Position numbers and translations under genes: made by a program. Shown piece by piece: positions 6,267 through 20,986 of a stretch of DNA of 22,737 nucleotides (its first letter is position 1; each line of letters begins with the position of its first letter). Source of the DNA: a virus. Under the pieces are notes generated by a model. It did not search any database and was not told where the DNA came from. It saw only the letters and a list, made by a program, of their open reading frames with translations. The DNA lies in IMG/VR virus record IMGVR_UViG_3300024433_002526; one strand, written 5' to 3'.

Positions 6267-8115
6267 TCTCGTCCTTCGTCTCGTCGATGGTCATCGCCAG
6301 ATCGAGGTGGTCCTCGGTCTTGTACAGCTCTCCGCTGGTGTCCTTGCTCGGAATAGCCGAACCCTCTTCCTCGCCGCCTTCCCTCCCGAACCAGTCCTCA
6401 CGAAGGTCCTTCACGAAGAAGTGCTTCGCATCGGAAGGCTTGACCTTGCGTGACTCCATCATCTGGTTGACCCGGCCGAGCCGCGTGACCAACTCCATGA
6501 GCAATGGCCGTAGCTCGGGCCGGAGCTTCTCGAACTCTGCTCCTGGTGCTCCCGAGGGTCCTTCGGCCGGAGGCGGCGGCGGCGGAGGCAGTCCCGGACC
6601 GGCGGCATTGACATCGCCCGGCGGTGGCATCTCAGGAGGCGGCGCTGGCGGCGCACCAGGCTCGCCACCTTGTTGCTGTGGAGCACCCGGCAGGATCAAC
6701 GCGTCGATCAGCCTGTCGGACAGGTGCCCATACTGCTTGAGCACGTACCTGATCCAGATCTGCATGTCGAAGTTGACCTGTTGTCCGAGGTTGAGCAGGC
6801 GATCGATGATGTCAATGCGGATCTCGATCAGCTGCTGACGGTGCAGCTCTTCGAGGAACGAGACCGGTGCCATAGCCAGGGTGAACTGGTTGTCCGGATC
6901 TCGGGGGTCGATCCCCCTAAACGCCAGGTTCAGCTGGAGGACACGGTGAACACCAAGCAGGAAGTACCGCTGCAGCTTCTGCGGTATGCGGACGTATCGA
7001 CTGTCCTGCTGTGTGAGTCTCCGGCTGGGGTCATACGGTGTCGAGCCCTCGATGTTGTAGCCAAAGAAGCTGGGCGGGATGCGGACCGACGCGTGATACC
7101 GCGCCAGATAGTAGTGCAGGTTCGTAGCTTCATTCGCGTTGCTCGAACCCTTGAGTCGTTCGATCTTCGTCTCGCGTCCCTGCACCTGAGGGACCACGAG
7201 GTCCTCATTCGCCGTCCACGGGTTCCAGTCCTCACGGAGCTGGCCGCTGCTCGGGTCGTAGTACTTCGTCTTCTTGAGCTTCGTCGTGAAGCGCTCGACG
7301 TAGTCCGAGGTCTCCTCGTCAGTGAGGCCAGTGCAGTCGACGTAGTAGACGTCGCGGTCAGCATGGCGCTGAAGGATGTAGACGACGTCGGCGTCTTCGG
7401 CCATGCGCAACCTGCGGTACGGCCTGCGAGATGACACGAGCAACGTGGTGCCGTACATGGCCGAGAGCGATCCAAAGATCCTGAAGTGCACGATCTCCCA
7501 CGGCTGCTTGTTCGGCTCCGAGGAACCACCAGCAGTCTCGCCGAGGTAGAAGCCGAGCAGCGTTCCGGTGTCGTAGTCCTCAAACCTGCGGAACCGCTTC
7601 GGGTGGTGGAAGCGCAGCATGCTAATGCCGGTACCGGGCTCCCAGAAGAGTTCGACAGGGAAGTCGCCATATTTGCCGAGGCCTCTGCCGACCAGTGGCG
7701 CGTACTCTTCGAGCTGAGTGGTCTCGATGCACTCCTCGCAGATCTGGCGGATCTCTTCGTTGCAGTCCTCCACCCAGAGCATGCGGTTCGTTGCCGGGTC
7801 GATCTGGATTGCGTCCTCGGTATACGTGTCGAGCACGGCCGACGGGAGATCGTCCGAGTCCATGACATCGACCTCGTCGTAGATCTCCATCCTCGTCTTG
7901 CCCAGACGCATGCGCTCGCCGTAGAACGAGTACATGTTCTGGCCTTCTTCGCCAGACGCGAGCGACGGCGCGGCAGCCTTCCCCGAGGTGTCCCGTCGTC
8001 GCATGTAGGGTTTGGGCGCTCCATAGAGGACGCCTCGGATGAAGTTGTAGATACGGGTCCCAAAGCCTTGCCTGGGTCGCATCTCTTCGTTGACCACCTG
8101 CGGTGCCTGCGCCAT
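6256..8115 (-). CDS. Portal protein (with C-terminal proline-rich insertion)
   Basis: 619 aa, immediately downstream of the large terminase. ATG 8115 is preceded by GGGAGG with a 7-nt spacer. The N-terminal motif 'RMEIYDEVDVMDSDDLPSAVLDTYTEDAIQ' resembles the conserved portal motif (Y-x-E-x-x-x-M-D ... ALD-x-Y-A-x-D-A). Size and position are typical. Confidence 0.7.
   Translation of the reverse strand: MAQAPQVVNEEMRPRQGFGTRIYNFIRGVLYGAPKPYMRRRDTSGKAAAPSLASGEEGQNMYSFYGERMRLGKTRMEIYDEVDVMDSDDLPSAVLDTYTEDAIQIDPATNRMLWVEDCNEEIRQICEECIETTQLEEYAPLVGRGLGKYGDFPVELFWEPGTGISMLRFHHPKRFRRFEDYDTGTLLGFYLGETAGGSSEPNKQPWEIVHFRIFGSLSAMYGTTLLVSSRRPYRRLRMAEDADVVYILQRHADRDVYYVDCTGLTDEETSDYVERFTTKLKKTKYYDPSSGQLREDWNPWTANEDLVVPQVQGRETKIERLKGSSNANEATNLHYYLARYHASVRIPPSFFGYNIEGSTPYDPSRRLTQQDSRYVRIPQKLQRYFLLGVHRVLQLNLAFRGIDPRDPDNQFTLAMAPVSFLEELHRQQLIEIRIDIIDRLLNLGQQVNFDMQIWIRYVLKQYGHLSDRLIDALILPGAPQQQGGEPGAPPAPPPEMPPPGDVNAAGPGLPPPPPPPAEGPSGAPGAEFEKLRPELRPLLMELVTRLGRVNQMMESRKVKPSDAKHFFVKDLREDWFGREGGEEEGSAIPSKDTSGELYKTEDHLDLAMTIDETKDENES
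6529..6693 (-). repeat. Low-complexity Pro/Gly/Ala tract inside the portal gene
   Basis: Encodes 'LPGAPQQQGGEPGAPPAPPPEMPPPGDVNAAGPGLPPPPPPPAEGPSGAPGAEFE'. On the plus strand it appears as ggcggcggcggcggagg-type runs. Confidence 0.8.
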
Positions 8116-8118
8116 CTA

Positions 8119-11100
8119 TCAACCTCCCACCAAAATTGCCGGTGCCTGCGGTAGTCCCCCGACCGGTAGCCGTTGCTGCATCTCCAACTTGTTGGCCCTC
8201 TTCCTCGGTGGGATCAGACCGTAGACTGCCCCACACAGAGCGTCGCTCACGTCCTTGGACCCACTGAGCGGCTTGAAGACCTTCTTCGCCGTTATGTCGT
8301 GCGACAGGTGCCTCAGCTCAGTTTCGAGCGGTTCGTACGGGTACGTTCTGATTATCCCGGACTCGTAGACACCCTTCAAGTTTATATACGGATCATCCGA
8401 TTCGTCGACACTCACAAAATCAGCCTCGATGCCCATCTTGTGGAGCTTCTGTACGAAGTGCCTTGACTGGTACTTGTCCAGGGAGACCATCTGGAACGTG
8501 TAATGGTTCCGGTGGAGGTACTCAACGAATTCGATGATCTTGTCGAAGTCCACTTCGCCCCGGCCGTACGGAGGCGGATCGATCCGGAATGCGAAGTCCA
8601 GGTAGGTGAGCGGCATGCCTCCCTGTGGCGGTGTCCACATGTGCACGCACGCGATTCCCACTGAGCAGCCGGTCACCGCAAGGTCGATATGCATGACGCG
8701 CCCAGCCTCTGGGTGCAGCCTCGGCCGATAGTGGTTGAGGTGTGTCTCGAACATGATGTCCTCGCGCACAGCGTCCTGAATGCGGACAGGCGAGTTCGTC
8801 GAGATCACCATGAACTGGGTCTTGAACGGGTGAACCAAGTTCTCGTCGTAGTTGTTGTATATGACTTCCGGCCTGTGGAACAACCCGCTCGCCGCAACCG
8901 TCGCACGCCCAGCGATATTGCGGATGAAGTCTTCGATGTTGTTTTCGGCGTCGGGCTTGTGCTCCAACGGGGCCGTGATCACATTGGCCTCGTCTACCTG
9001 GTCAGCCTCGTCCTCGCCCTCCACGAGAATACGAGGCTCCGCAGTGTCGTCGCCACAGAAGACCCGGAACGTCCTTCCGCTCTTGTATGTGCCCTCGGGC
9101 TGAACGTCCCATATGGCACGAGAAATTACCGCGACACCGTCCTCGTGGCCGTGCTTCGTAATGTGCTCTTCGAGGAAGTCAGTCTGGGCGCGTCGCTGCG
9201 AGAGCAGGCACATGAAGTATGGCGCGGCCGAGCCAGGGCTGGCTACGAACTGGTTGCGGAGGCGTCCTCGGATCGCGCCGTACAGCTTCTGCGCCTGACC
9301 CAGCGATTCCTCTGCATGCGCCCTGCTTCGGCCCTTAGCCGAGCGCATGAAGTTGACCTCGTCGAGAATACCGCCGATGAATGTTTCACCCAGTGCGTGA
9401 AGCTCGGTGGCGCCCTCAACGATCGACACATGGTCCGGAAGGATCAGCTCCTTGCTGCGCTCGCCACTCAGCCGAGAGAACTTCTCCACGAAGTACGGGC
9501 ACTCGTCGATGATCGCCTGGATACGCGAGTGCATGTCGCCGGTCTTGTACTTGAAGATATTGAAGATGCCGTACCGGATGCTCGATCCACGCATCAGACC
9601 AAAGAATCCCTGTGGGTCCCTCAGCAACGAGAGTAGATAGATCCGGTACCCGGCCATGATCGTAGCCAGGGTGGTGTTATGTGTGACTACACAATGGTCT
9701 GTCAGATAGAGACCACCTGGCGCGGACGTTGAGATGCACTGGGTCTCTTCCGCACCGGAGTATTCAACTGATACAATGGCCCTACTTGGAGCGTATCGAG
9801 CCCTCGGCCTGTAGTGGTTCTTCTTTCTAGTGAGCTGGAATGGGCAGAGCCATGATGGGAGTGCCAGCCTCAGCCTATACCGATCTCGACCGGCCGTAGG
9901 ACCAACAAGATATCTGCAAACACCGCCAAGACTTTCGACCAGGAAACGCACATCGGCAGCAAGACGTGGCGACGCAGTCGAATACTCCAGCTTGTTGTTG
10001 CTGTGCTCAACAGAACCGTTTTCAGTATCCATGAGACCCTGCAACAAATACGCCCGTTGCTGTACGCTGCCATAGAGGTAGTCCTTCGGTACTCGCTTCT
10101 CGTGCGCTGGGTGGCACATGTCGAGTGCCTTGAGGGCTTGCATCAACGGATTAGACTTACCACCGCGCGTGCCAGAGGAGAGCGAGTAAGTGTACCGGCC
10201 TTTGTGGTTTGCCTGAACACCAGGAGGTAAGAGAGCCGCCACCCAATGCAGAAGTTCCCTATCAGAGGTCGTCAATATTGGCGTGTTCTGCGTGAGACCG
10301 CCATTACCGATCAACACACCCGCCAGGTATGGGTGAAGCAGGAGATGTCGTTCCGACCACTGTATCGGGTCAGCCACTGGAACGAACCACTTATTCGAGC
10401 CGTCCCTATAGTGTAGGTCCGACGAAAGCTCCCGAAGAGTCTTCGTTCTCAGGGGTCGCCTATAGTGCTTGTCAGACTTCGTGAAGACAGACCAGAGATG
10501 CTCCGCGCCGCACCGAACCACCTGTCCATCAGAGAACGTCACAGTGTAGACGTCACGAGCACCCTGTGGGTAGACACCGGTCACCGGGTAGAAGTAGCCA
10601 TCCCTGCCAGCTACCAGATCATTGGTAGTGATGTCTCCCATCTTCTTCAGGCCGTCGGAAGTGATCAGTTCTGAGGTCAGTGGTTGGTCTTTGCCCCACC
10701 TTGTGGAGCCCGTGAGGACGACCTCGAAGACTCGGTTCTTCGGGTTGAGCAGCCAGCACGCATCCCGGAAGTTGACTGGGTAGAGACCCTCACCGAAGCG
10801 GCCCGCGTAGTATGGGTCAGTGAGAAACTGGCGTGGTGTGACCGGGATGTCCTTGTAGTCCTGTGTGACAATCCCAGCCGCAGTCTCGCTCCAGCCATCA
10901 AGCATCAGCTCGTCAACGATACGAGGAATCGAGTCGCGGAGGTGCTGGAAGTCTTCTGCCCTGACAAGGTTCGCAACCTCGTCGAAGGATGAATAGACCT
11001 TCAGAATCTCTCTGCGGAGATCCGGGTCGAGACCGGCGACAAACTCGTCGTCACCGTTTATGTGAGCCGTCAGTGCCAGCTGGAGGAGATTTCTCTTCTT

Positions 11101-11136
11101 CCCCACTACCGGCCTGTCGACCTCGGGCCTTAACAT
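8119..11136 (-). CDS. terL: Terminase large subunit, intein-containing precursor (1005 aa)
   Basis: Walker A 'GSTRWGK' is interrupted after Lys149 and resumes 'TTLATIMAGY'. Walker B is 'GGILDEVNF'. The C-terminal RNase H-like nuclease region contains 'HIDLAVTG', 'VSLDKYQ' and 'DVSDALCGAVYG'. In the 86-nt overlap with the upstream gene, this frame carries the G/C third-position bias, which supports ATG 11136. Confidence 0.9.
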   Translation of the reverse strand: MLRPEVDRPVVGKKRNLLQLALTAHINGDDEFVAGLDPDLRREILKVYSSFDEVANLVRAEDFQHLRDSIPRIVDELMLDGWSETAAGIVTQDYKDIPVTPRQFLTDPYYAGRFGEGLYPVNFRDACWLLNPKNRVFEVVLTGSTRWGKDQPLTSELITSDGLKKMGDITTNDLVAGRDGYFYPVTGVYPQGARDVYTVTFSDGQVVRCGAEHLWSVFTKSDKHYRRPLRTKTLRELSSDLHYRDGSNKWFVPVADPIQWSERHLLLHPYLAGVLIGNGGLTQNTPILTTSDRELLHWVAALLPPGVQANHKGRYTYSLSSGTRGGKSNPLMQALKALDMCHPAHEKRVPKDYLYGSVQQRAYLLQGLMDTENGSVEHSNNKLEYSTASPRLAADVRFLVESLGGVCRYLVGPTAGRDRYRLRLALPSWLCPFQLTRKKNHYRPRARYAPSRAIVSVEYSGAEETQCISTSAPGGLYLTDHCVVTHNTTLATIMAGYRIYLLSLLRDPQGFFGLMRGSSIRYGIFNIFKYKTGDMHSRIQAIIDECPYFVEKFSRLSGERSKELILPDHVSIVEGATELHALGETFIGGILDEVNFMRSAKGRSRAHAEESLGQAQKLYGAIRGRLRNQFVASPGSAAPYFMCLLSQRRAQTDFLEEHITKHGHEDGVAVISRAIWDVQPEGTYKSGRTFRVFCGDDTAEPRILVEGEDEADQVDEANVITAPLEHKPDAENNIEDFIRNIAGRATVAASGLFHRPEVIYNNYDENLVHPFKTQFMVISTNSPVRIQDAVREDIMFETHLNHYRPRLHPEAGRVMHIDLAVTGCSVGIACVHMWTPPQGGMPLTYLDFAFRIDPPPYGRGEVDFDKIIEFVEYLHRNHYTFQMVSLDKYQSRHFVQKLHKMGIEADFVSVDESDDPYINLKGVYESGIIRTYPYEPLETELRHLSHDITAKKVFKPLSGSKDVSDALCGAVYGLIPPRKRANKLEMQQRLPVGGLPQAPAILVGG
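9676..10689 (-). mobile_element. Intein (~338 aa) with LAGLIDADG homing-endonuclease domain, class 3-like signature
   Basis: Removing residues D150..N487 restores the P-loop G-S-T-R-W-G-K-T. The C-terminal end is 'VVTHN|T' (block G). Two LAGLIDADG-like motifs are present, 'YLAGVLIGNGG' and 'YLLQGLMDTENGS'. There is no Cys/Ser/Thr at intein position 1, and there is Trp in 'AEHLW' (block B), Cys in 'ETQCIS' (block F) and Thr before HN. Codon usage inside is visibly A/T3-richer, with many AGG/AGA codons, than in the flanking extein. Confidence 0.85.
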
Positions 11137-11995
11137 TGATCTGCTCCACTGCTACTTCCCGCTCGACCTTCGACGGTATGTCCGGCCCGTTCTCAGGGCC
11201 GCCGGACAGGAATCCCTGCATGGCTTGGGTGAACTCACTGACCGAAGCGGTCAGGTGATGCCTCCGCTGTTCAACCTGCCTCCGCGCCTCGGTGTCGGTG
11301 CTGTCACCAGACTCGATGGTGCCAGCTGCTACGAAACCCATGCGCACGGTACCGCCGTCACCTTTGGGCGGCTTGGGCGTCGCCTTCTCCACAACCTCAG
11401 CAAGTAATCGTATCGCGTTGGTCGCGTCCTTGATGTGGGCATTGGCGTGCCCCATGAAGTCCCACAGATCGTCGTAGTTGAGTTCCGATGCGTCAGCCAG
11501 CTCGAACATCCTGCGTGACGCTACAGCGCTTGCCTCCATGATCGGACCGATCCTGTGCATCTGGTACGTCAGCAGCATATTCGCCGCCGCACGCAGCAAC
11601 GAAGGGTCCGCGCTGTCGATCTCTATCTGCTGGTTACCGTCGAACCAATCAGGCCAGCGTCCGTTCGTCATGCGGTACATGTACGCACGGTAGATCTGAT
11701 CCCCAGTGACCCGCTTATCGAACGGGATGAAGAACGACTGGCCGGGATACATCTTGTCGTACTCACGCAGCGTCGTCTCGTGATCCTCGCTCAGGTGCTT
11801 CTCGAATTCAGCTATGCCGTTGAGGTGTTTGTGGCACAGCCAGCAGGTACGCACACCGAGCTGCTTCAAGATCTTGGCATCGGGCTGCTTCCTCTTCTTC
11901 GCCTTCTGCTCAAACCAAAGCTCACGCCGCGTTGCCGCCTTCTTCTTGGCAGCCTTCTTCTTCTTCTTGGTTGCAGCCTTCTTCATCTTAGCCAT
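11051..11995 (-). CDS. Lys-rich C2H2 zinc-finger DNA-binding protein (possible small terminase subunit by position)
   Basis: N-terminus 'MAKMKKAATKKKKKAAKKKAAT..KAKKRKQ'. Then 'CWLCHKHLNGIAEFEKHLSEDH', which is C-X2-C-X12-H-X4-H. A helical body follows. It lies directly upstream of terL and overlaps it. No recognisable TerS motif, so the function is inferred from position only. Confidence 0.55.
   Translation of the reverse strand: MAKMKKAATKKKKKAAKKKAATRRELWFEQKAKKRKQPDAKILKQLGVRTCWLCHKHLNGIAEFEKHLSEDHETTLREYDKMYPGQSFFIPFDKRVTGDQIYRAYMYRMTNGRWPDWFDGNQQIEIDSADPSLLRAAANMLLTYQMHRIGPIMEASAVASRRMFELADASELNYDDLWDFMGHANAHIKDATNAIRLLAEVVEKATPKPPKGDGGTVRMGFVAAGTIESGDSTDTEARRQVEQRRHHLTASVSEFTQAMQGFLSGGPENGPDIPSKVEREVAVEQINVKARGRQAGSGEEEKSPPAGTDGSHKR
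11876..11995 (-). repeat. (AAG/GCN)n Lys/Ala-coding low-complexity tract
   Basis: The plus strand shows cttcttcttggcagccttcttcttcttcttggttgcagccttcttcat. A comparable tract lies at 18219..18320. Confidence 0.8.
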
Positions 11996-12389: not shown

Positions 12390-13039
12390 TATGCCACCAA
12401 TGCTTCTGGTCCGTAGGTCACGTCGTAGTAGACCCAACGGTAGAGTATAGTCAGGTAGGTGTACATGAAGCCCGGGTCCCAGTAACCCGTCTCGATGATC
12501 ATCTCTTCTATCGTCCTGGAGTCTGCGTTCCGGCATTCAAGCTCCACGTAGTTACGGCACAGGTCGAAGTCCACGACGTCGAAGCGTGCACGTCCTGCCA
12601 TCTTCTCCGCGATCACATCCTTGTGCCAACCCGCCAGATGCGCGGCCCACAACTTGCCGTGCAGATTCGGCTCCTGCTCGGGCTCGGTGCTCTCGGCGTA
12701 CTTGTCCCGCGAGCGCTCTTCGGCCTGTGTCTTCCGATGGTTGCCGATCAGGAATTGTTGTGTCACAACCCGCACCGACCCCACAAAGAGACTTGGACTG
12801 TCACAAGGGATCTTCCGCTGGGACAGCCTCGACCACAGTTCCAACTGCAGCTCGGCCAGGTGGTCATCGAGATCGAACTCGGAACAGTTGTAGTCCTTAC
12901 CCTTGATGACCGCAGTGACGTAGTGCTTGATCACCGACCAGATCGCAACCCACCGATCCTCGGGCATGCTCGTCTCGTTGCCAGCGGCATACTCACAGTA
13001 CGCGTGGAACGCCGTCATCTTGTAGTCGCTACGCCCCAT
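12389..13039 (-). CDS. Putative sigma-factor-like regulator (216 aa)
   Basis: ATG 13039 is preceded by GGTGG with a 6-nt spacer. There is weak resemblance to sigma region 2 ('DDHLAELQLELWSRL') and to a region 4-type HTH ('HLAGWHKDVIAEKMAGRARFDVV'). The assignment is tentative. Confidence 0.3.
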   Translation of the reverse strand: MGRSDYKMTAFHAYCEYAAGNETSMPEDRWVAIWSVIKHYVTAVIKGKDYNCSEFDLDDHLAELQLELWSRLSQRKIPCDSPSLFVGSVRVVTQQFLIGNHRKTQAEERSRDKYAESTEPEQEPNLHGKLWAAHLAGWHKDVIAEKMAGRARFDVVDFDLCRNYVELECRNADSRTIEEMIIETGYWDPGFMYTYLTILYRWVYYDVTYGPEALVA

Positions 13040-14687
13040 TGAAAACCACCATTGGCTTCGTTGGTTCCGGCTCGTTGTATGCGCCTATCCACGAGCCCTG
13101 GCTCTCGGTGTAATTGACAACGATCTTCCGCCGTACCGGCACCGGGTACTCTCCTTGCGGGCTCATTACGAAGACAGCCGAGCCCTGAGCAGTCGGCAAC
13201 AGATAGTTCTTGTAGAGACGACGCTTTGCCCATGGATCGAGCACGTCGACAACGTCGTCGCAGACTAGGATCGGCACCGGGTTCGGCCAGGTCCCCATAA
13301 GCACCTCACGCAGAGCGGCCTGGATACTCAGGTCGATCTTCCTTCGCTGACCGACCGAGGACTTCTTGTACTGCCCGGCCCGGCTCTGCACAAGCAGGTT
13401 GATCTCGGCCTTGGTCGTGCCCTTCTTCAGCTCGCGATCGGTGCATAGCTGCGCCAGGAACTCGGATTCCCACACATCGTTGCACATCTCGACGAGCTTC
13501 GTGTTCACTGCATCCAGCACCGACCCCATCTTCCGTATTGGGATCTCGGCGAAGGCAGCGTCTAGCAGATCCAACTCAGCAACCTCGCCTGTCGTCTGCG
13601 CCACTGCTGCCTCAACCTGGGCGAGCTGTAGCTCGATCGAGGTAACTTGCTCTGTAGCCGCGTCTACTTGGGCCAGCTCACCAGTAAGCTGCTGCAGCTG
13701 CATGCGGTAGTGCTGGATCTCGGCAAGCAGCTTGTCAGACACAGCTTTCAGATCGGCCAGGGTGCTCGACGCTATGACCCGAGCACACTCAGTGTTCTCG
13801 GCCGTGAGCTTCTTGATCGCGTTCGCCGCTGTCTTCTGGGCAGACTCGATCGCCTGCTTCGAGTAGGGCCTCTTGCAGGTCGGACACGCAGTCATGCTCT
13901 GGAGCGAGGACCTCTGCTGTGCAATCTGGCGCTCAGTATTGTTCTTGTTAGCCATGGCCTGGCCTATGCGAGTCGACTCACCCTGAACCTTTGAGTTGGC
14001 CGCGCCGAGTTGCTGGCTCCTCGCCTGCTCCTGCTGCTGGGCCGTGGTCATCTCCGCCACGATCGTGGCCCTCGGCCTACGCACTTGGGCCTGTGTTGCC
14101 TTGAGCTGCGTCAACTGATTGCGCAGGGTGTTGGCGGACCCTTGTAGCTGCTGCAGCTCGCCAGTGCGCTTCCTGCGCTCCTGGGCAAGCGTAGAGCGAG
14201 CCTGCTTCCAACGTTCGAGCCCGAGCAACTCAGAGAGCTGCTGGGCTCGGTTGCCTGGTGTCCAGGAGGACAGGCGCTCGGCCACCCCCTGGCCAAGGAT
14301 CAACGTCGAGCAGAAGATCTCCTTCGGTGGGAAGACCTGCGCGAGGTACGCTTTGGAATCCGCCAGCGTGCGCGGGCCGCCATCGATCGTGATCTCGTTG
14401 CTGGTACCATCCGCCTTCTGCGACCTCGCGATCGTGACGAATGGAAGCTCCAACTCAACGCGGCACGACTCTGCCCCGTTGTAGCAAACCTCTCGGATGC
14501 CCTCGGTGGTCTCTCCATAGATCACCCATGCTAGAGCGTCAGGCAAGAAGGTGCTCTTGCCTGCACCGTTCGACCGGTCGCCCTCTCCCTCGTAGATGCC
14601 CTCAACTGCAACGAGACCTGCAGTCTCGATCTTGTAAGAGAGTTTTTGGTACGAACGGAAGTTCTCAGCTGTCAGCCTCAGTATCAT
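13029..14687 (-). CDS. Rad50/SbcC-like (T4 gp46-like) ATPase
   Basis: N-terminus 'MILRLTAENFRSYQK' and Walker A 'SNGAGKSTF'. A long Q/A/L-rich coiled coil carries a central 'CPTC' zinc-hook motif. There is a signature-like 'SVGQRRKIDLS' and Walker B 'ILVCDDVVDVLD'. Confidence 0.85.
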   Translation of the reverse strand: MILRLTAENFRSYQKLSYKIETAGLVAVEGIYEGEGDRSNGAGKSTFLPDALAWVIYGETTEGIREVCYNGAESCRVELELPFVTIARSQKADGTSNEITIDGGPRTLADSKAYLAQVFPPKEIFCSTLILGQGVAERLSSWTPGNRAQQLSELLGLERWKQARSTLAQERRKRTGELQQLQGSANTLRNQLTQLKATQAQVRRPRATIVAEMTTAQQQEQARSQQLGAANSKVQGESTRIGQAMANKNNTERQIAQQRSSLQSMTACPTCKRPYSKQAIESAQKTAANAIKKLTAENTECARVIASSTLADLKAVSDKLLAEIQHYRMQLQQLTGELAQVDAATEQVTSIELQLAQVEAAVAQTTGEVAELDLLDAAFAEIPIRKMGSVLDAVNTKLVEMCNDVWESEFLAQLCTDRELKKGTTKAEINLLVQSRAGQYKKSSVGQRRKIDLSIQAALREVLMGTWPNPVPILVCDDVVDVLDPWAKRRLYKNYLLPTAQGSAVFVMSPQGEYPVPVRRKIVVNYTESQGSWIGAYNEPEPTKPMVVFNGA

Positions 14688-15172: not shown

Positions 15173-16216
15173 TCAAGCCAAGAACTTCCTCGCCAGCTCA
15201 AGCAGCTTCGGCGAACACTGCCCGCGCTCCGACAGGAGTCGCTCGACGTCTGCCACTGGGTCACCACCCAGATCGAACACAGCCTTCTTCGCTACAACAA
15301 CCGACTCCTTCTTCGGCCGCACCCGCACAGTCTTGATACCAGCTTGCTGGTACGGTGCCGGGTCCACATCCTCAGTCAGGTTCACGTGGAGCTGCTCACC
15401 AATGAACGGGCAGCGTGCAATCTCAATGTCGAGCTGGTCCTTGGTCCCGCTGAAGAACGTGTGTGAGTGCGGGTTCTGCAAATACGTCACACTGCCGGTC
15501 GGCGCCGGATCTGTCTGCCACAAACACGCGCCATGAAACCGACCGAGGTCCTTGAAGTTGTGCGCCATGACACACCCAGGCACATGGATTGGTGTCATCA
15601 CGGGACCAATGTCGTACTCGGCGTTGTTCGCTATATGGTAGTGCCCGGCGAAGACGATGTTGAAGAGCATCGTCACGTCAACGAGGTCGAGACCTTTGTC
15701 CTTTGACCCACCGAGCATCATCCCCTCGATCGGAACGTGCGTGTACAGCGCCGTCGGCTTGTCGTCTGTCTGGACCCAATCCTGGAACTTGTGCTGGCCC
15801 CAGTTCATTGGGTTGTCCATCCATGGCTCGAACGGTAGCAGAGCTATACGGAAGGACCCGTAATCGACCGCCATCGGTTTCTTCACAAAGTAGAATGCCG
15901 AGCTTGGCGGAGGGTCGAAGATGTCGAGCGCAGAATAGAGATCCGAGTACACATCATGGTTGCCGATCAGCATGTAGACGTGGACGCCGTGCTTCACCGC
16001 GAGGCTCTTCAGGGTGTCGATGGCCCACTTCGCCCGGAGGTTTGCCAAGAGGTCCTGGCCCTGAACGCTCTCAATGGTGTCACCGAGCCACACAAGCACA
16101 TTGACATTCCGCGCCAGCACCGTGTCGTGGACCCATCGAACCGTCGCCTCGAAGGCGTCGCCACCGAGAGTCTTCTTGGTCTGTGTGTGCAGGCAGCCTG
16201 CTGTCATCACGTTCAT
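15173..16216 (-). CDS. Mre11/SbcD-like (T4 gp47-like) metallophosphoesterase nuclease
   Basis: I place the start at ATG 16216, which forms an ATGA overlap with the FEN stop. Calcineurin-like motifs are 'WLGDTIES', 'LIGNHDVY', 'YTHVPIEG' and 'FAGHYH'. Motif I reads 'GCLH' rather than the usual D-x-H. Confidence 0.85.
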   Translation of the reverse strand: MNVMTAGCLHTQTKKTLGGDAFEATVRWVHDTVLARNVNVLVWLGDTIESVQGQDLLANLRAKWAIDTLKSLAVKHGVHVYMLIGNHDVYSDLYSALDIFDPPPSSAFYFVKKPMAVDYGSFRIALLPFEPWMDNPMNWGQHKFQDWVQTDDKPTALYTHVPIEGMMLGGSKDKGLDLVDVTMLFNIVFAGHYHIANNAEYDIGPVMTPIHVPGCVMAHNFKDLGRFHGACLWQTDPAPTGSVTYLQNPHSHTFFSGTKDQLDIEIARCPFIGEQLHVNLTEDVDPAPYQQAGIKTVRVRPKKESVVVAKKAVFDLGGDPVADVERLLSERGQCSPKLLELARKFLA

Positions 16217-17181
16217 CGCAACACCTCGAATGCTTGAACCCATGATCCATACGTGCGGAGGAGAGGATTCATCTCGTACAGCGTCATGAATTGCATCACG
16301 GCCTGCCAGTTGAACACAGGCTGCTGATGCCAGTGCATCCAGACCCAGTTCCGTTCCTCTTCGCCCATCGCGAGGCCAGACCAGAACCAGACAAGCTGGA
16401 TGTTGCGCTCGATCTGCTGTTGTACTTCGGCTTCGAGCAGCGACTGGTACTTCTTCGCCTTGGGGAAGTGCTGCTTCACAGCCTCTACCATCTGCGCCAA
16501 GCTCGGACCCTTCGACTTGTCCATGAGATTGCGCACTCCGCCGGGGCCGAGTCCCTTACAGGGCGACGGGATGTTGTCGGACGAGTCGCCAAGGATGCCC
16601 TTCGCTACGATCACCTCCCAGGGTCCCCAATCACTCCAGTCCCGCCAGTTGTCAGCACCGACGACCAGCTCCTTATTCGTAGAGTAGACCATGCTGTGCT
16701 CACCAAGGATCTGCGCAAAGTCCTTGTCCTCAGACACGACGTACGAGTCGCAGTTATACTGGGCCAACGTGTTTGACAGGTACCAGATCGTGTCGTCTGC
16801 CTCGTGCGGCCCATTGACCACAACCACACCGAAGCTCGGAAGATACTGAAGGAGGATGTCACGCTGGTAGATGTACATCTGCCTGTAGTTCTCAGACTCC
16901 ACGCGGTCCTCTTCGCTCTTGTACTCCTTGCGCTTGTACTCAGGGTAGAGGGCCACTCGGTTGGGATGCTTGTCGAAGTCATGAACCCATAACACGCGTG
17001 ACGGGTTCAGTGTCCTGACGATCGCTGTCAGAGACTGGAGCGATTTCATAGCAGCGCCGATCGGAGCACCGTGCGGACCCGACTCAGCGCCGGGCAGGTG
17101 CATCGATCGATGGAGTATGTACGACCCGTCAATTATGGCTACCCCACCGGGTCGAAGCCGTTGTAAGCCAGCCTTCGGCAT
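16213..17181 (-). CDS. 5'-3' exonuclease / flap endonuclease (FEN, PIN-like plus H3TH)
   Basis: Motifs 'VAIIDGSYILHRS', 'HEADDTIWYLS', 'VVSEDKDFAQIL' and 'GILGDSSDNIPSPCKGLGPGG'. I place the start at ATG 17181; the track's 17196 is a TTG. The gene overlaps the end of the RecA-like gene. Confidence 0.85.
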   Translation of the reverse strand: MPKAGLQRLRPGGVAIIDGSYILHRSMHLPGAESGPHGAPIGAAMKSLQSLTAIVRTLNPSRVLWVHDFDKHPNRVALYPEYKRKEYKSEEDRVESENYRQMYIYQRDILLQYLPSFGVVVVNGPHEADDTIWYLSNTLAQYNCDSYVVSEDKDFAQILGEHSMVYSTNKELVVGADNWRDWSDWGPWEVIVAKGILGDSSDNIPSPCKGLGPGGVRNLMDKSKGPSLAQMVEAVKQHFPKAKKYQSLLEAEVQQQIERNIQLVWFWSGLAMGEEERNWVWMHWHQQPVFNWQAVMQFMTLYEMNPLLRTYGSWVQAFEVLR

Positions 17182-18320
17182 TGGTCCACCATCCAAGCTC
17201 TAACATCGGTTCGCTCGATCAAGAACTGACGGTACGTATTCCAGTAGCACGCCGCAGGCGTTGGCATACGGAACGTGATCACCTTGCCCAGGTTCTGTGC
17301 GTCCTCTTTCCCTGGTGCAGTGACACTGATGTGGCTTGCTCGCTGTGACAAGTACTCAAACATGGCGAAGTCATCGTCGAATCCGCCTTGGAATGTCACA
17401 GGTATCCGCGTCCTTCGGTGCGGCGGGAACGTCTTGTTTTTGCGGGCCACGGCATACGGCATCACACCGTAGCTCGCCTTCGACTCACCATAGACCTGGC
17501 CTCCCGCCTGGACAGCCTGGGCCTCCAAGAACTTCTTTGCGCTGCGGAATTCCATGCGGATCGAAGCATGGAATCTGATGCCCTGCCCAAACGGTGTCGC
17601 GGGCTCGGTGTCCCACTGGTTGAACGTCGCGGACACATGGTTCACGAACACCATGAGAGCGTTGTGCTTCGCGACGAGCCCGGTGATCTCTCGCAGTCCT
17701 TCGCGCACAACACGACCCCCAGAACCCGGTCGGTCGTCCTTGGAGTGTGATGCTCCGATAGTATCCCATGTGATCAGCATGGGCTTGTTGTGCTTCTTCC
17801 CACCCAAGAGGCTCTTGATCCACGCATAGCCGTCCTCGATGAACTCGAACTCAAGGTACTTCACCGCGTGAGTGTCGACACCGATGCGGGCCATGCGTGC
17901 AGGGTCGAGCGTGTACTCAGTAATCCCCATACAGACTTCGCCGCCAACACGCTGAACCTGAGCAGCCAGGTTTTCACAGAACGTGCTCTTTCCTGTGCTG
18001 TACGCTCCGACGACCTCAATGATACGACCGACTGGAACTCCCCAGTTCGTCGCGAGCGTACCGTCAGACGGGCTCGGTATGACCTCCCCGTCCTCGGTGA
18101 CAGTGGTGGGGCCACCCATGATCGCATCGAGCGGAGTACACCCACAGCTGATACGCTCGCGAACAACCGAGTAGAGCTTGGCGGTCCCGAGCACTCCGAC
18201 CGGGACCGCCTGCTCTGCCTTCTTGCCCTTCTGCTTCTTTGCGGCCTGCTTCTTGGTGCTCTTCTTCTTGGCCTTCTTCTTCTTGGGCGTCGTCTTCTTG
18301 GTCTGCCTTTTCGCTACCAT
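17139..18320 (-). CDS. RecA/UvsX-like recombinase with Lys-rich N-terminal tail
   Basis: The RecA core is colinear: 'VGRIIEVVGAYSTGKSTF' (Walker A), 'MLITWDTIGA' (Walker B), 'LMVFVNHV', 'PFGQGIRFHASIRMEFR' and 'VARKNKTFPP'. ATG 18320 has GAGGAG 10 nt upstream. ATG 18344 is an alternative start. The tail is 'VAKRQTKKTTPKKKKAKKKSTKKQAAKKQKGKK'. Confidence 0.85.
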   Translation of the reverse strand: MVAKRQTKKTTPKKKKAKKKSTKKQAAKKQKGKKAEQAVPVGVLGTAKLYSVVRERISCGCTPLDAIMGGPTTVTEDGEVIPSPSDGTLATNWGVPVGRIIEVVGAYSTGKSTFCENLAAQVQRVGGEVCMGITEYTLDPARMARIGVDTHAVKYLEFEFIEDGYAWIKSLLGGKKHNKPMLITWDTIGASHSKDDRPGSGGRVVREGLREITGLVAKHNALMVFVNHVSATFNQWDTEPATPFGQGIRFHASIRMEFRSAKKFLEAQAVQAGGQVYGESKASYGVMPYAVARKNKTFPPHRRTRIPVTFQGGFDDDFAMFEYLSQRASHISVTAPGKEDAQNLGKVITFRMPTPAACYWNTYRQFLIERTDVRAWMVDQCRRLAYNGFDPVG

Positions 18321-18432: not shown

Positions 18433-20265
18433 CTACTGGGAAAAAGGGGGCTGCTGCCAGTTCGGAGCCGCCATCCCGGCCGGTGCCGGGGCAGGCGCGG
18501 GAGCCGGTACAGCTGCTGGCACCGCCGCAGGAGTCGCGGGCGTTGCAACGGCCTTACACTTCGCGGACTTGTTGAGGTGCGTCGTCAAGCCGCGTTGGCC
18601 GCTGTACTCGTTACCGCAGGCAGGGCATAGGACCTTGTCGGCCTTGGCCTTCCCTTTCGACTTGCCCTTCTTCGCCGGTTCTCCAGCACCATCAGTAGGG
18701 GACGTTGCCACCTGCTGCGGGGCCGGAGCCGGGGGGAAAGGGCTTTGGGGTCCTCCCTGTCCCGGCATCGCCGGAGGCTGAGGGAGAGCGCCAGCCTGAG
18801 GAGCCGGTGCAGGCATGGGCATTGGTGCCGGTGCCCCTGCGGGCATAGGACCAGGAGCCATCATCGGAGCCCCTGGGGGAACAACACCCGGACCCATTGC
18901 TGGCGCCCCTACAGGAGCGCCCGGCACCGCTGGCGGCGCCCACATGTTCTGCTGTGGCTGTGCCAGCATCGGAGCTGGCGTCGGTGCCGGTGCCACGGCA
19001 GCCGGTGCCCCGCCGACCGGGGGCATCATACCCATCGGTCCAACTCCGGCCGGAGCTGCCACCGAGGAACCCACTGGAGCTGGCTGAGGAGCTGACTGCG
19101 GGACCCCGGTGGCAGGCTGTCCGGCCATCGCAGGCATCGGCATTGAGCTTGGGCCACCGACACCCGGTGCGGTGTTCTGGAACTGGTTCGGCGGTCCCAT
19201 CACACCCACTGCAGGAGCTGGAGGCTGAGGTGCGAACTGCTGACCTGCCTGAGGTCCGAACTGCTGTCCCGGCATCCCCATCTGGCCCATCGCGGGTGCG
19301 GCTGCACCATGCGTCTGGCCTACGATGTCGGGAACGGTGAGCTGCAGATTGAGGCCGAGCTGCTCCGGATGGTAGCCTGTCATCTGCAAGCACTGCTGCG
19401 CCAGAGTCTCTGCGATCTTCATCTGGTTCTGGAGCTTCTCGACCGTCGGGATACCGAAGTTCGCGAACGAGTCGAGGTCATGCATGCCGCTGAGAATCTG
19501 CTGCATCGTGTTCGGATCACCGGCGAGCGGACCCTGCATCGTCTGTTGCCATGTGTAACTGTTCTTGCCCTGGAACGACACGGGCTTCTTGACCAGCATG
19601 ATCCAACCTGTCTGAAGGTTGAGGATCGATCCCACGTACGGCATGGACATCAGCTGCACGAGACCCGAGAACACCGAGACGGGCAGGCGCAGGACGTAAG
19701 GCTTGAGCCGCCTGTACAACATGGTGCGGCCCATGTCCTGCGTGTCGTAGATCACCGAGTTGACGTACTGGTAGGAGCGGGGCGTCATGTTGTCGAGGCT
19801 GCCGCCCATGTACTGACTGTACACATCGATCACCTGGCAGATCGGGCACGTGAAACCGTAGTTCGGGTACGACTTCTCCCAGCACGACGAGTGCTGGTTG
19901 CCGAGCAGCTGGTGGTGCGAGCAATGGAACTTCGACCACGCTCCACGCTGTGCAGCCGCGTCGCTCCACGGCGGGAGCACGCGGAACCAGTTGTCACCGG
20001 TCTTGAAGGAGTAGAAGTCTGTGTCCTTCTTCCGCGCCGCGTTCATCGTGCTGATTTCTTCGGCCTGTTTGCGGATGCTCTCCATGTCGACGTCACGAGC
20101 CATGATAGAGTTGACGTCGACACCCGGAGCACCACCCTGGCCGCCCGGCGGCATCGCCGGAGGCTGTGCAGGTGCGAATTGAGCCGCCTGCGGGACGACG
20201 GGTGCCATTCCCGGCTGCCCGGGCATTTGCATTCCCCCGCCAGGCATCATCTGTCCTGGTTGCAT
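18433..20265 (-). CDS. gp32-like ssDNA-binding protein with long P/A/G/M/Q disordered regions and a C-terminal C2HC zinc finger
   Basis: ATG 20265 is preceded by AGGGAGG with a 7-nt spacer. The core (res ~80-300) is colinear with T4 gp32 as I recall it: 'DNWFRVLPPW' vs 'QAVIRFLPS'; His/Cys cluster 'H..C...CPICQ' vs 'H...C...CPVCQ'; 'SYQYVNSVIYD' vs 'SYWANILVVKD'. Low-complexity regions cover res 1-48 and ~318-530. A Lys-rich patch and 'CPACGNEYSGQRGLTTHLNKSAKC' follow. Confidence 0.6.
   Translation of the reverse strand: MQPGQMMPGGGMQMPGQPGMAPVVPQAAQFAPAQPPAMPPGGQGGAPGVDVNSIMARDVDMESIRKQAEEISTMNAARKKDTDFYSFKTGDNWFRVLPPWSDAAAQRGAWSKFHCSHHQLLGNQHSSCWEKSYPNYGFTCPICQVIDVYSQYMGGSLDNMTPRSYQYVNSVIYDTQDMGRTMLYRRLKPYVLRLPVSVFSGLVQLMSMPYVGSILNLQTGWIMLVKKPVSFQGKNSYTWQQTMQGPLAGDPNTMQQILSGMHDLDSFANFGIPTVEKLQNQMKIAETLAQQCLQMTGYHPEQLGLNLQLTVPDIVGQTHGAAAPAMGQMGMPGQQFGPQAGQQFAPQPPAPAVGVMGPPNQFQNTAPGVGGPSSMPMPAMAGQPATGVPQSAPQPAPVGSSVAAPAGVGPMGMMPPVGGAPAAVAPAPTPAPMLAQPQQNMWAPPAVPGAPVGAPAMGPGVVPPGAPMMAPGPMPAGAPAPMPMPAPAPQAGALPQPPAMPGQGGPQSPFPPAPAPQQVATSPTDGAGEPAKKGKSKGKAKADKVLCPACGNEYSGQRGLTTHLNKSAKCKAVATPATPAAVPAAVPAPAPAPAPAGMAAPNWQQPPFSQ
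18676..19314 (-). repeat. Low-complexity coding region (Pro/Ala/Gly/Met/Gln-rich, ~210 aa)
   Basis: Examples are 'PAMGQMGMPGQQFGPQAGQQFAPQPPAPAVGVMGPP...APMPMPAPAPQAGALPQPPAMPGQGG'. It generates several spurious overlapping ORFs in other frames and on the other strand (18692..19393, 18745..19095, 18815..19087, 18897..19340). Confidence 0.85.
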
Positions 20266-20278
20266 CGCTATTACCTCC

Positions 20279-20986
20279 CTAGCCAGTCACCTGGGGTGAT
20301 CGCGGGTCAGACGACTCCCTGATCAGTCCCAATTCGCGCTGGGTCCACACGCTCGCCTGGACGAGCATCTCTGTTTGCATACTGTCGAGCAGGTTCTGCA
20401 GCTGGTAGCCCAGGTACTCCCAGTCATCCTGCAGCTCCTGCAACATCGAGTGCGTCGGGTCATTCCTGATCTGCGCGTCGACCGCGTCGTTCGTCACCTT
20501 GATGCTCTTGTCCTGCATGGACATCTCACCAAGTCTCTGACGGGTCGGCATGTCGAGGTCGCGCTGGCGCATCTTGCGCACACGCTCGACCAGGCGCTGC
20601 ATCTCGGTGGACCACGTACGGTAGAACCGAATGCTCTCCGCGATCCGCACGTACTCCATGACGATCGAACGGATCTCGGTGTTCTGGAACCACGAGATGA
20701 TGTTCACGATCTGCGTGTACATCGGGTTCAGGTACTGCATCGTCTCCAGCAACCGCTGATCGTTCGAGGCCTGTGTCGCCTGGTAGATCTTCTGGATCTT
20801 CGTGTAGAGGTACTGCTGCACGAAGTCGAAGGAAGGCTTGTTCACTGCCTGTCCCTCCACTGGTGGCAGATGCACATACACCTGATCCGGTGTTGGCTGC
20901 GTTCCCCCTTGCGTTGCTGGTGCAGCCTGACCCTGCAACGCACTCTTCTTGACGGCCTTCTTCTTTGCCACTGCTCCTCCTTTCAT
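20279..20986 (-). CDS. Hypothetical helical protein (235 aa) with Lys-rich N-terminus; a recombination mediator or replication accessory role is possible from context only
   Basis: ATG 20986 overlaps the polymerase stop (TGATG). N-terminus 'MKGGAVAKKKAVKK'. The rest is predicted helical, with at most a faint UvsY-like flavour. It lies between the polymerase and SSB genes. Confidence 0.65.
   Translation of the reverse strand: MKGGAVAKKKAVKKSALQGQAAPATQGGTQPTPDQVYVHLPPVEGQAVNKPSFDFVQQYLYTKIQKIYQATQASNDQRLLETMQYLNPMYTQIVNIISWFQNTEIRSIVMEYVRIAESIRFYRTWSTEMQRLVERVRKMRQRDLDMPTRQRLGEMSMQDKSIKVTNDAVDAQIRNDPTHSMLQELQDDWEYLGYQLQNLLDSMQTEMLVQASVWTQRELGLIRESSDPRSPQVTG

Follow-up and report, generated by a model that had tools for sequence, protein, structure and literature searches.

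Lysine-rich tails and linkers on a RecA-family recombinase and several neighbouring proteins of an uncultivated phage

Lysine-rich appendages of the kind described here are already well known in bacteria and phages, and the present finding is a real but fairly ordinary one. Lys-rich tails resembling histone H1 (the PAKKA type) occur on mycobacterial Hlp/MDP1, Streptomyces HupS, Deinococcus HU and Dps1, and Mycobacterium smegmatis Ku (PMC3553676, PMC6300522, PMC6821194), the Lys-rich extensions of Deinococcus Dps1 and HU being N-terminal (PMC6300522). Among DNA-binding proteins, low-complexity regions rich in Lys are over-represented, and they take part in binding DNA non-specifically (PMC6821194). 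Ref of phage P1, a RecA-dependent HNH nuclease, has a basic unstructured N-terminus of 76 residues that is needed for DNA binding (PMC4330346). In Escherichia coli RecA, the N-terminal domain (residues ~1-33) serves in monomer-monomer contact and filament formation and in the capture of donor double-stranded DNA through Lys23 and Arg33 (PMC2672939), and the RecA C-tail is treated in PMC13076628. This study analyzed a stretch of viral DNA of 22,737 nucleotides (IMG/VR record IMGVR_UViG_3300024433_002526), which as a whole is called the window here, for the Lys-rich N-terminus of its RecA/UvsX-like recombinase and for comparable tracts in the proteins encoded nearby.

Lys clustering was assessed by comparing the maximum number of Lys residues in any 15-residue segment of a protein with that in 2000 within-protein shuffles. 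The clustering exceeded the shuffles in 5 of the 22 window proteins, namely the recombinase (9 Lys in 15), a 314-residue protein at the small-terminase position (10 in 15), the gp32-like SSB (7 in 15), and a 235-residue protein (6 in 15), all with p = 0/2000, and a PDDEXK nuclease (7 in 15, p = 0.0035). An HU-like protein was marginal (6 in 15, p = 0.05). The other 16 window proteins, including PolA, FEN, Mre11-like, Rad50-like, TerL, portal and MVP-like, had no tract by this test. A significant tract was also lacking in all 18 further proteins scored, of which 16 came from the flanks of L015 and L017 (the same or a near-identical phage) and two from the closely related contig L019; a 455-residue L019 protein with 6 Lys in 15 did not reach significance (p = 0.14). 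The tracts and the two zinc-finger motifs beside them are located as follows.

18210..18320, minus strand: Lys-rich N-terminal tail of the recombinase, 37 residues, 17 Lys, net charge +17
11873..11995, minus strand: N-terminal basic tail of the 314-residue protein, residues 1-41, MAKMKKAATKKKKKAAKKKAATRRELWFEQKAKKRKQPDAK, 10 Lys in 15
11780..11845, minus strand: zinc-finger motif of the 314-residue protein, C-x2-C-x12-H-x4-H, a pattern with classical C2H2 spacing
18643..18672, minus strand: basic linker of the SSB, KKGKSKGKAK, just before the C-terminal zinc finger
18556..18627, minus strand: C-terminal zinc-finger motif of the SSB, C-x2-C-x12-H-x6-C, a pattern match
20942..20986, minus strand: N-terminal Lys cluster of the 235-residue protein, residues 1-15 (MKGGAVAKKKAVKKS), 6 Lys in 15
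4116..4157, minus strand: internal basic tract of the nuclease, KGAAKKKAGKGKPK
5790..5981, minus strand: C-terminal extension of the HU-like protein, with the patches AKKKGKH (5895-5915) and PKKKGE (5817-5834)
2634..2678, minus strand: Arg/Lys-rich N-terminus of a CopG/RHH-like 99-residue protein, 7 Lys or Arg in 15
3565..3609, minus strand: Arg/Lys-rich N-terminus of a 122-residue protein, 7 Lys or Arg in 15

We also employed an annotation-free six-frame count, in which a tract was defined as at least 7 Lys in 15 residues. The window, with a GC content of 58-62%, had 1.76 tracts per 10 kb, and its relatives had 0.9-2.4; the syntenic relatives are L004 (a 151,933-nt NCBI contig), L005 and L012 (a 154,741-nt ENA contig), and L008. 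Three cultured phages of 58-62% GC (115 kb) had 0.20, 0, and 0.28 tracts per 10 kb, and the density in the window is approximately 6-9 times that of these GC-matched phages. AT-rich viral contigs reached 2.5-4.0 per 10 kb, a value due to composition alone. The shuffle and six-frame counts confirmed that the Lys tracts are real and non-random, with the correction that approximately half of the DNA enzymes of the module have no tract.

A preliminary description of this DNA, made from its letters alone, had reported recurrent Lys-rich tails on many DNA-transaction proteins. The stretch at 18219-18320 (minus strand) indeed translates to MVAKRQTKKTTPKKKKAKKKSTKKQAAKKQKGKK, the Lys-rich N-terminus of a RecA-fold recombinase, and the remaining tracts that it listed lie at or near the positions given. 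Five significant carriers bear out the recurrence, but "many" is an overstatement, given that PolA, FEN, Mre11-like, Rad50-like and TerL have no tract. The word "tail" suits the recombinase and the 314- and 235-residue proteins, in which the tracts are terminal, but not the SSB and the nuclease, in which they are internal linkers. The N-termini of the RHH and 122-residue proteins are Arg/Lys-rich, as had been claimed, but they are mixtures of the two residues without Lys runs.

The recombinase belongs to the RecA family (Pfam PF00154) by its ATPase core with a Walker A motif (GAYSTGKS) and its RecA-like fold. The top Foldseek matches of its predicted model were all bacterial RecA (E 3e-19, TM ~0.7 on target length). 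We took the ATG at 18320, which is M9 of the long open reading frame (ORF), as its start rather than 18344 because the homologues begin with MAKKK or MVAK; gene callers on identical contigs give a protein of 393 residues, consistent with this start, the long ORF having 401. A search of 5.8 billion proteins returned 19 homologues of 38-99% identity, 18 of them full-length. All 18, down to 38% identity, carry a Lys-rich N-terminal tail that spans 23-42 residues, or 87 in the most distant member, with a net charge of +10 to +21, and Lys makes up 24-65% of the tail versus 3-6.5% of the core. Past the MAKK start, the tails have nothing alignable in common and no conserved positions.

An AlphaFold model based on a 20-sequence alignment had pLDDT below 50 over residues 1-58 of the 401-residue ORF and a confident core, and the tail is predicted to be disordered; no helix appears before residue 70 in this model, which is of the monomer only. 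On alignment with canonical RecA, the tail falls in the columns of the N-terminal helix and the next strand aligns, although this placement is weak because the segment is of low complexity. The C-terminus (...RRLAYNGFDPVG) has no cluster of Asp or Glu and no acidic C-tail of the RecA type. A separate feature of the recombinase is a clade-specific insertion of ~23 residues (PTTVTEDGEVIPSPSDGTLATNW) at residues ~71-93 of 393 (~17970-18050), between the LDAIMGG motif and Walker A. The insertion is absent from the two most distant members (P0018 and P0019) and from canonical RecA.

When 1.84 billion representatives were searched exhaustively with HMMER, 4103 RecA-family matches were obtained, only three of them with E <=1e-30. 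The clade of this recombinase is small. Among the 150 best RecA-family representatives, 20 had at least 6 Lys in 15 within the first 60 residues, including several strong poly-Lys tails, and 25 carried an acidic C-tail. An N-terminal Lys tail of 50 residues is present on the P0046 recombinase (26% identity). In L023, a much more distant 139-kb phage with a recombinase 24% identical to that of the window, both the recombinase and the nuclease are Lys-tailed. Poly-Lys N-termini on RecA-family recombinases of uncultivated phages thus occur in at least three lineages with a mutual identity of only 24-26%, and our literature search found no paper describing such recurrence. The assertion that canonical RecA, UvsX and HU proteins have no such tails is true but incomplete, considering the 20 Lys-clustered representatives among 150 and the Lys-tailed HU variants already known (PMC3553676).

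The tail of the 314-residue protein is present in L004, L005, and L008, and in orthologues down to 30% identity its charge and composition are kept and its sequence is not. The zinc-finger motif adjoins the tail, and C51, C54, H67, and H72 of this motif do not vary among six orthologues. The gene lies directly upstream of TerL, as in L004, L005, L008, and L017. No Pfam or PHROG match was obtained for the protein, and the sole match in a PDB profile search was a chance zinc finger (E 0.88). A word-indexed homologue search found only three proteins, and a four-sequence AlphaFold model (pLDDT 40.8) was unusable. We also note that a zinc finger is uncommon on a protein at the small-terminase position.

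The linker of the SSB is kept in weaker form in L008 and L005 and is absent in L004; the CPGCG of its zinc finger is also found in L005 and L008. Approximately 300 residues of this protein are of low complexity, rich in Pro, Ala, Gly, Gln, and Met and uncharged (~55 N-terminal and ~230 central), and its end is Ala/Pro-rich with no acidic tip. No PDB sequence match was found for the SSB. Its succession of low complexity, basic linker, zinc finger, and Ala/Pro end is unusual for an SSB. The counterparts of the 235-residue protein, which had no family (Pfam, PHROG) or PDB match, begin with MAKKKAAKAS in L005 and MGKKKSAKKS in L008, and L004 has no such start.

The nuclease tract is kept in all homologues of at least 54% identity, and their KGKGKPKxEKYTF segment is conserved at the sequence level. 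P0059-61 lack the tract, and P0062-64 have an N-terminal Lys/Arg tail instead. The tract is thus an internal loop in the close clade and N-terminal in P0062-64, and its position is interchangeable. The L012 orthologue of the HU-like protein retains both basic patches, as MAKRKQGEH and EQKKKKKSGESTSKKRR. The likely L012 counterpart of the RHH protein begins with MTRKKAKKKRRPK, and that of the 122-residue protein with MARKNHARARRK; an exact look-up of the RHH protein returned no record.

These findings suggest that the tracts are probably disordered, Lys-rich, low-complexity appendages, tails or linkers that bind nucleic acids electrostatically and without specificity, with DNA as the presumed ligand. 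The DNA-handling proteins of this phage lineage would each have gained theirs separately. Generic H1-like DNA-clamping tails were the first of three options in the preliminary description, and this option agrees with the nucleic-acid-binding cores of the carriers, the retention of charge without sequence, the interchangeable position, the predicted disorder of the recombinase tail, and the class of tails known from the literature. The cores comprise a RecA fold, a gp32-like SSB, HU, and a PDDEXK nuclease; for the 314-residue protein, only the C2H2 motif and the TerL neighbour are available. A polycationic segment would quickly establish an initial contact with the DNA backbone, irrespective of sequence, and this contact would concentrate the folded domain locally on DNA or provide a grip on a second DNA segment. 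By analogy with the N-terminus of E. coli RecA, the recombinase tail may help nucleation on single-stranded DNA or capture of the donor duplex. The tail and C2H2 finger of the 314-residue protein may together form the DNA-recognition end of a small-terminase-like protein, and the basic patches of the HU-like protein and the nuclease would extend their DNA-binding surfaces.

Several points weigh against this interpretation. The trait is not general because five DNA enzymes of the same module (PolA, FEN, Mre11-like, Rad50-like and TerL) carry no tract. The label of DNA-transaction protein is putative for the 314- and 235-residue proteins, resting on gene position and, for the former, on the zinc-finger motif as well. 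The placement of the recombinase tail over the RecA helix is likewise a weak one, drawn from a low-complexity alignment. A polycationic tail binds RNA, polyphosphate, or an acidic protein just as easily as it binds DNA. Moreover, removal of the tail from M. smegmatis Ku raised its DNA affinity (PMC3553676), and the picture of a sticky handle may be too simple because the tail-less Ku binds DNA more tightly.

The tandem-repeat program TRF resolved 18219-18301 of the recombinase tail into 5.5 copies of a 15-nt unit, roughly K-T-A-K-K, and 11939-11989 of the 314-residue protein tail into 2.3 copies of a 24-nt unit. Among strains that are at least 99% identical, the Lys run of the latter has five residues in the window and L017, six in L018, and seven in L019. 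These repeat units and run lengths show that the tails lengthen and shorten through slippage in frame; a difference of one Lys separates the recombinase tail of P0001 from that of the window. The tails arise and vary in length through slippage of (AAG)n in frame and through duplication of short tandem units, and selection retains their charge and length but not their sequence. Two ideas at the DNA level were rejected. Codon bias does not distinguish the tracts, AAG being 90% of Lys codons inside them and 91% outside, and a role of the CTT runs themselves is contradicted by relatives whose nucleotide sequences differ but still encode the Lys composition.

The window holds a T4-like replication, recombination and packaging block with every gene on the minus strand, as listed below with Pfam and PHROG E-values where a match was obtained.

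20989-22737, minus strand: PolA, partial
20279-20986, minus strand: 235-residue protein, no family match
18433-20265, minus strand: gp32-like SSB, 610 residues (PHROG 1192, SSB, 5e-9)
17139-18320, minus strand: RecA/UvsX-like recombinase, 393 residues (Pfam RecA, 3e-19; PHROG 97, UvsX-like, 1e-32)
16213-17196, minus strand: 5'-3' exonuclease, FEN (Pfam 5_3_exonuc_N, 3.1e-18)
15173-16243, minus strand: Mre11-like protein (Pfam Metallophos, 4.9e-10)
13029-14687, minus strand: Rad50-like protein (Pfam AAA_23, 3.6e-6)
Between the Rad50-like and 314-residue genes in the gene table, minus strand: small unknown proteins
11051-11995, minus strand: 314-residue protein at the small-terminase position (from the ORF list; overlaps the TerL start)
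8119-11136, minus strand: TerL with an intein
6256-8115, minus strand: T4-type portal (Pfam Portal_T4, 6e-37)
5787-6266, minus strand: HU-like protein (Pfam Bac_DNA_binding and HU-HIG over residues 1-94)
5359-5775, minus strand: holin-like protein (Pfam Holin_LLH, 0.0018, below cut-off)
3948-4703, minus strand: PDDEXK nuclease (Pfam PDDEXK_15, 1e-10)
3551-4084, minus strand: short protein resembling the C-terminus of NrdD (Pfam NRDD, 7.5e-6, below cut-off)
Between the NrdD-like and CopG-like genes in the gene table, minus strand: two small proteins
2379-2678, minus strand: CopG/RHH-like protein, 99 residues (PHROG CopG-like repressor, 1.6e-4)
2-2404, minus strand: MVP-like protein (Pfam MVP_shoulder, 9.5e-18)

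Queried with the recombinase, a tblastn search of 50,697 phage records gave no cultured relative above 30% identity. IMG/VR gave only near-identical contigs with the portal query and only distant contigs with the recombinase query, and two scans of GTDB genomes (with the portal and with the recombinase alignment) gave no matches.

Four observations stand apart from the tails. The TerL intein occupies window positions 9676-10677 (1002 nt, minus strand), a stretch that L019, 99.2% identical in the flanks, skips exactly; TerL has 657 residues in the intein-less L019 and 995 with the intein. The intein is absent from L005, L008, and L019 and present in L004, L017, and L018, and its matches to Pfam LAGLIDADG_3 are weak or faint. 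The full-length MVP-like gene encodes 895 residues (10778-13465 in L017; Pfam MVP_shoulder 9.5e-18, Vault_3 below cut-off), and phage MVPs have one earlier report, from gut phages (bioRxiv 10.1101/2023.11.10.566534). The NrdD-like ORF, to which gene callers give 136 residues (~3551-3961), matches just the last ~30 positions of Pfam NRDD, the glycyl-radical C-terminus (RIVGYYSQMHNWNGSKKAELHDR), at an E of 7.5e-6, which narrowly misses the gathering score. The product may be a glycyl-radical "spare part" that stands alone, and L023 encodes a full NrdD together with its activase. Beyond the present window, L023 also has genes matching Pfam Acb2_Tad1_hairpin (an anti-defence sponge) and Gad2, at 8141-8524 and 17363-18106.

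An alternative to separately acquired DNA-binding tails is a shared address tag, namely a degenerate, position-independent poly-Lys signal that gathers the proteins at an SSB condensate, at a polyanionic scaffold of RNA or polyphosphate, or at an MVP-like shell. Several proteins of a single replication, recombination and packaging module do have similar segments rich in Lys, Ala, Thr, Ser, and Gln, and signals of the nuclear localization type are likewise degenerate and position-independent. The ~300 low-complexity residues of the SSB also point this way, as does the localization of the H1-like protein AlgP to polyphosphate granules (PMC9239181). However, the low-complexity regions of the SSB are uncharged, the SSB itself bears a basic tract, and no protein of the window has an acidic tail that could act as the counter-charge. 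L012 and L005 are tail-bearing, yet they have no MVP-like gene at the syntenic place or in the 33 kb examined, and no MVP match was found in the examined parts of L004, L005, L008, and L012. The Lys-tailed recombinase and nuclease of the distant L023 sit in a different gene context, Lys-tailed RecA homologues are widely scattered, and no receptor candidate was found. To our knowledge, moreover, the cargo of eukaryotic vaults is not targeted by Lys runs. The second option of the preliminary description, a common address tag tied to the SSB or to the MVP-like gene, is therefore disfavoured by the uncharged SSB regions, the missing acidic partner, and the L012 tails without an MVP-like gene, and we regard such a tag as unlikely.

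The tracts might also be a neutral by-product, in which slippage-prone (AAG)n expansions without function are tolerated at termini and in loops. The variation from five to seven Lys in strains of at least 99% identity, the tandem-repeat structure, the lack of sequence conservation within the tails, and the loss of the weaker tracts (235-residue protein and SSB) in L004 would all be expected of such expansions. They do not readily explain why all 18 full-length recombinase homologues retain, down to 38% identity, a tail charged +10 to +21 and nearly free of acidic residues, why the tail of the 314-residue protein persists down to 30% identity, why the nuclease segment KGKGKPKxEKYTF is conserved in sequence, or why GC-matched phages have 6-9 times fewer tracts. 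A functionless origin accordingly seems improbable, much as the address tag does.

Early Lys codons (AAG/AAA) could instead prevent structure from forming in the 5' coding region of a GC-rich mRNA, thereby raising translation initiation, with the tail being incidental. Most family members begin with MAKKK, and the start region of the 314-residue gene is the least structured of 21 genes, with a minimum free energy (MFE) of -4.1 kcal/mol over -20..+40. The corresponding MFE is nevertheless average for the recombinase (-15.1) and unremarkable for the 235-residue gene (-9.0), tails of 23-42 codons far exceed the initiation region, and the tracts of the nuclease, SSB, and HU-like protein are internal or C-terminal. 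We rejected the initiation idea because start-region folding energies fail to separate the tail-bearing genes from the others, and consider an expression device very unlikely.

A broader proposal appears to us comparably remote. In the clade of ~140-155 kb T4-like phages, basic segments would have replaced the acidic tails of the SSB and recombinase, and the poly-Lys of the recombinase, TerS-position protein, nuclease, HU, and SSB would amount to a common partitioning code, an analogue of nuclear localization signals, by which the machinery of recombination and packaging gathers on a single polyanionic body, whether a DNA, RNA, or polyphosphate condensate or a protein-bounded compartment. Finally, a signal that brings the proteins, bound to DNA, into the capsid for injection into the next host, the third option of the preliminary description, is the least credible of all and highly improbable: basic proteins are co-packaged with DNA in some viruses and the HU-like gene adjoins the portal gene, but the carriers are replication, recombination and packaging enzymes, none of them a recognizable virion component, and the tract is internal in two of them.

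The tails were found to be translated and under selection, and low-complexity masking conceals tails of this kind in homology searches. If they are simple DNA anchors, the gain lies mainly in annotation, with the start codon of the recombinase fixed. The point most worth experiment is the recurrent poly-Lys N-terminus of phage RecA-family recombinases; apparently lying at the site of the canonical helix and accompanied by loss of the acidic C-tail, it could alter nucleation on DNA, which ordinary biochemistry could test.

Read as electrostatic DNA-binding tails, the tracts resemble bacterial H1-like tails in being short, mostly terminal Lys-rich low-complexity segments on unrelated DNA-binding cores, in evolving fast in sequence with charge kept, and, for the recombinase tail, in a predicted lack of structure; a basic extension at the C-terminus is found on the HU-like protein here as well. 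They differ in that they contain no PAKKA or AKP unit and nearly no Pro, Lys being accompanied by Thr, Ser, Gln, and Ala. They are not of the PAKKA subtype because of this composition, the single Pro in the 37-residue recombinase tail, and the 15-nt unit encoding roughly K-T-A-K-K. The carriers also differ, being a phage recombinase, nuclease, SSB, and TerS-position protein, with DNA binding predicted, rather than host nucleoid proteins. Among phages, we found H1-like tails on gp69 and gp85 of Gordonia phage Chidiebere and a basic C-tail on its gp32-like SSB.

With P1 Ref, the recombinase shares a place in a phage recombination pathway and a disordered polycationic N-terminus, a DNA anchor in Ref and putatively one here. 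The N-terminus of Ref has 25 basic residues among 76, is patterned, and belongs to an HNH nuclease, whereas the tails described here are denser (up to 65% Lys) and are carried by a RecA-fold recombinase and a PDDEXK nuclease. Compared with the N-terminal domain of RecA, the recombinase tail has what appears from a low-complexity alignment to be the same position, is likewise basic, and may plausibly act in capturing DNA; RecA has an amphipathic helix with few basic residues there, in contrast to a 37-residue poly-Lys region with no predicted helix. T4 gp32, UvsX, and bacterial SSB carry acidic C-terminal tails. As in those systems, an SSB and recombinase module has a disordered terminal segment, with a putative role here in modulating DNA binding. 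The polarity, however, is reversed, since the SSB and recombinase of this phage have no acidic tail and bear basic tracts instead.

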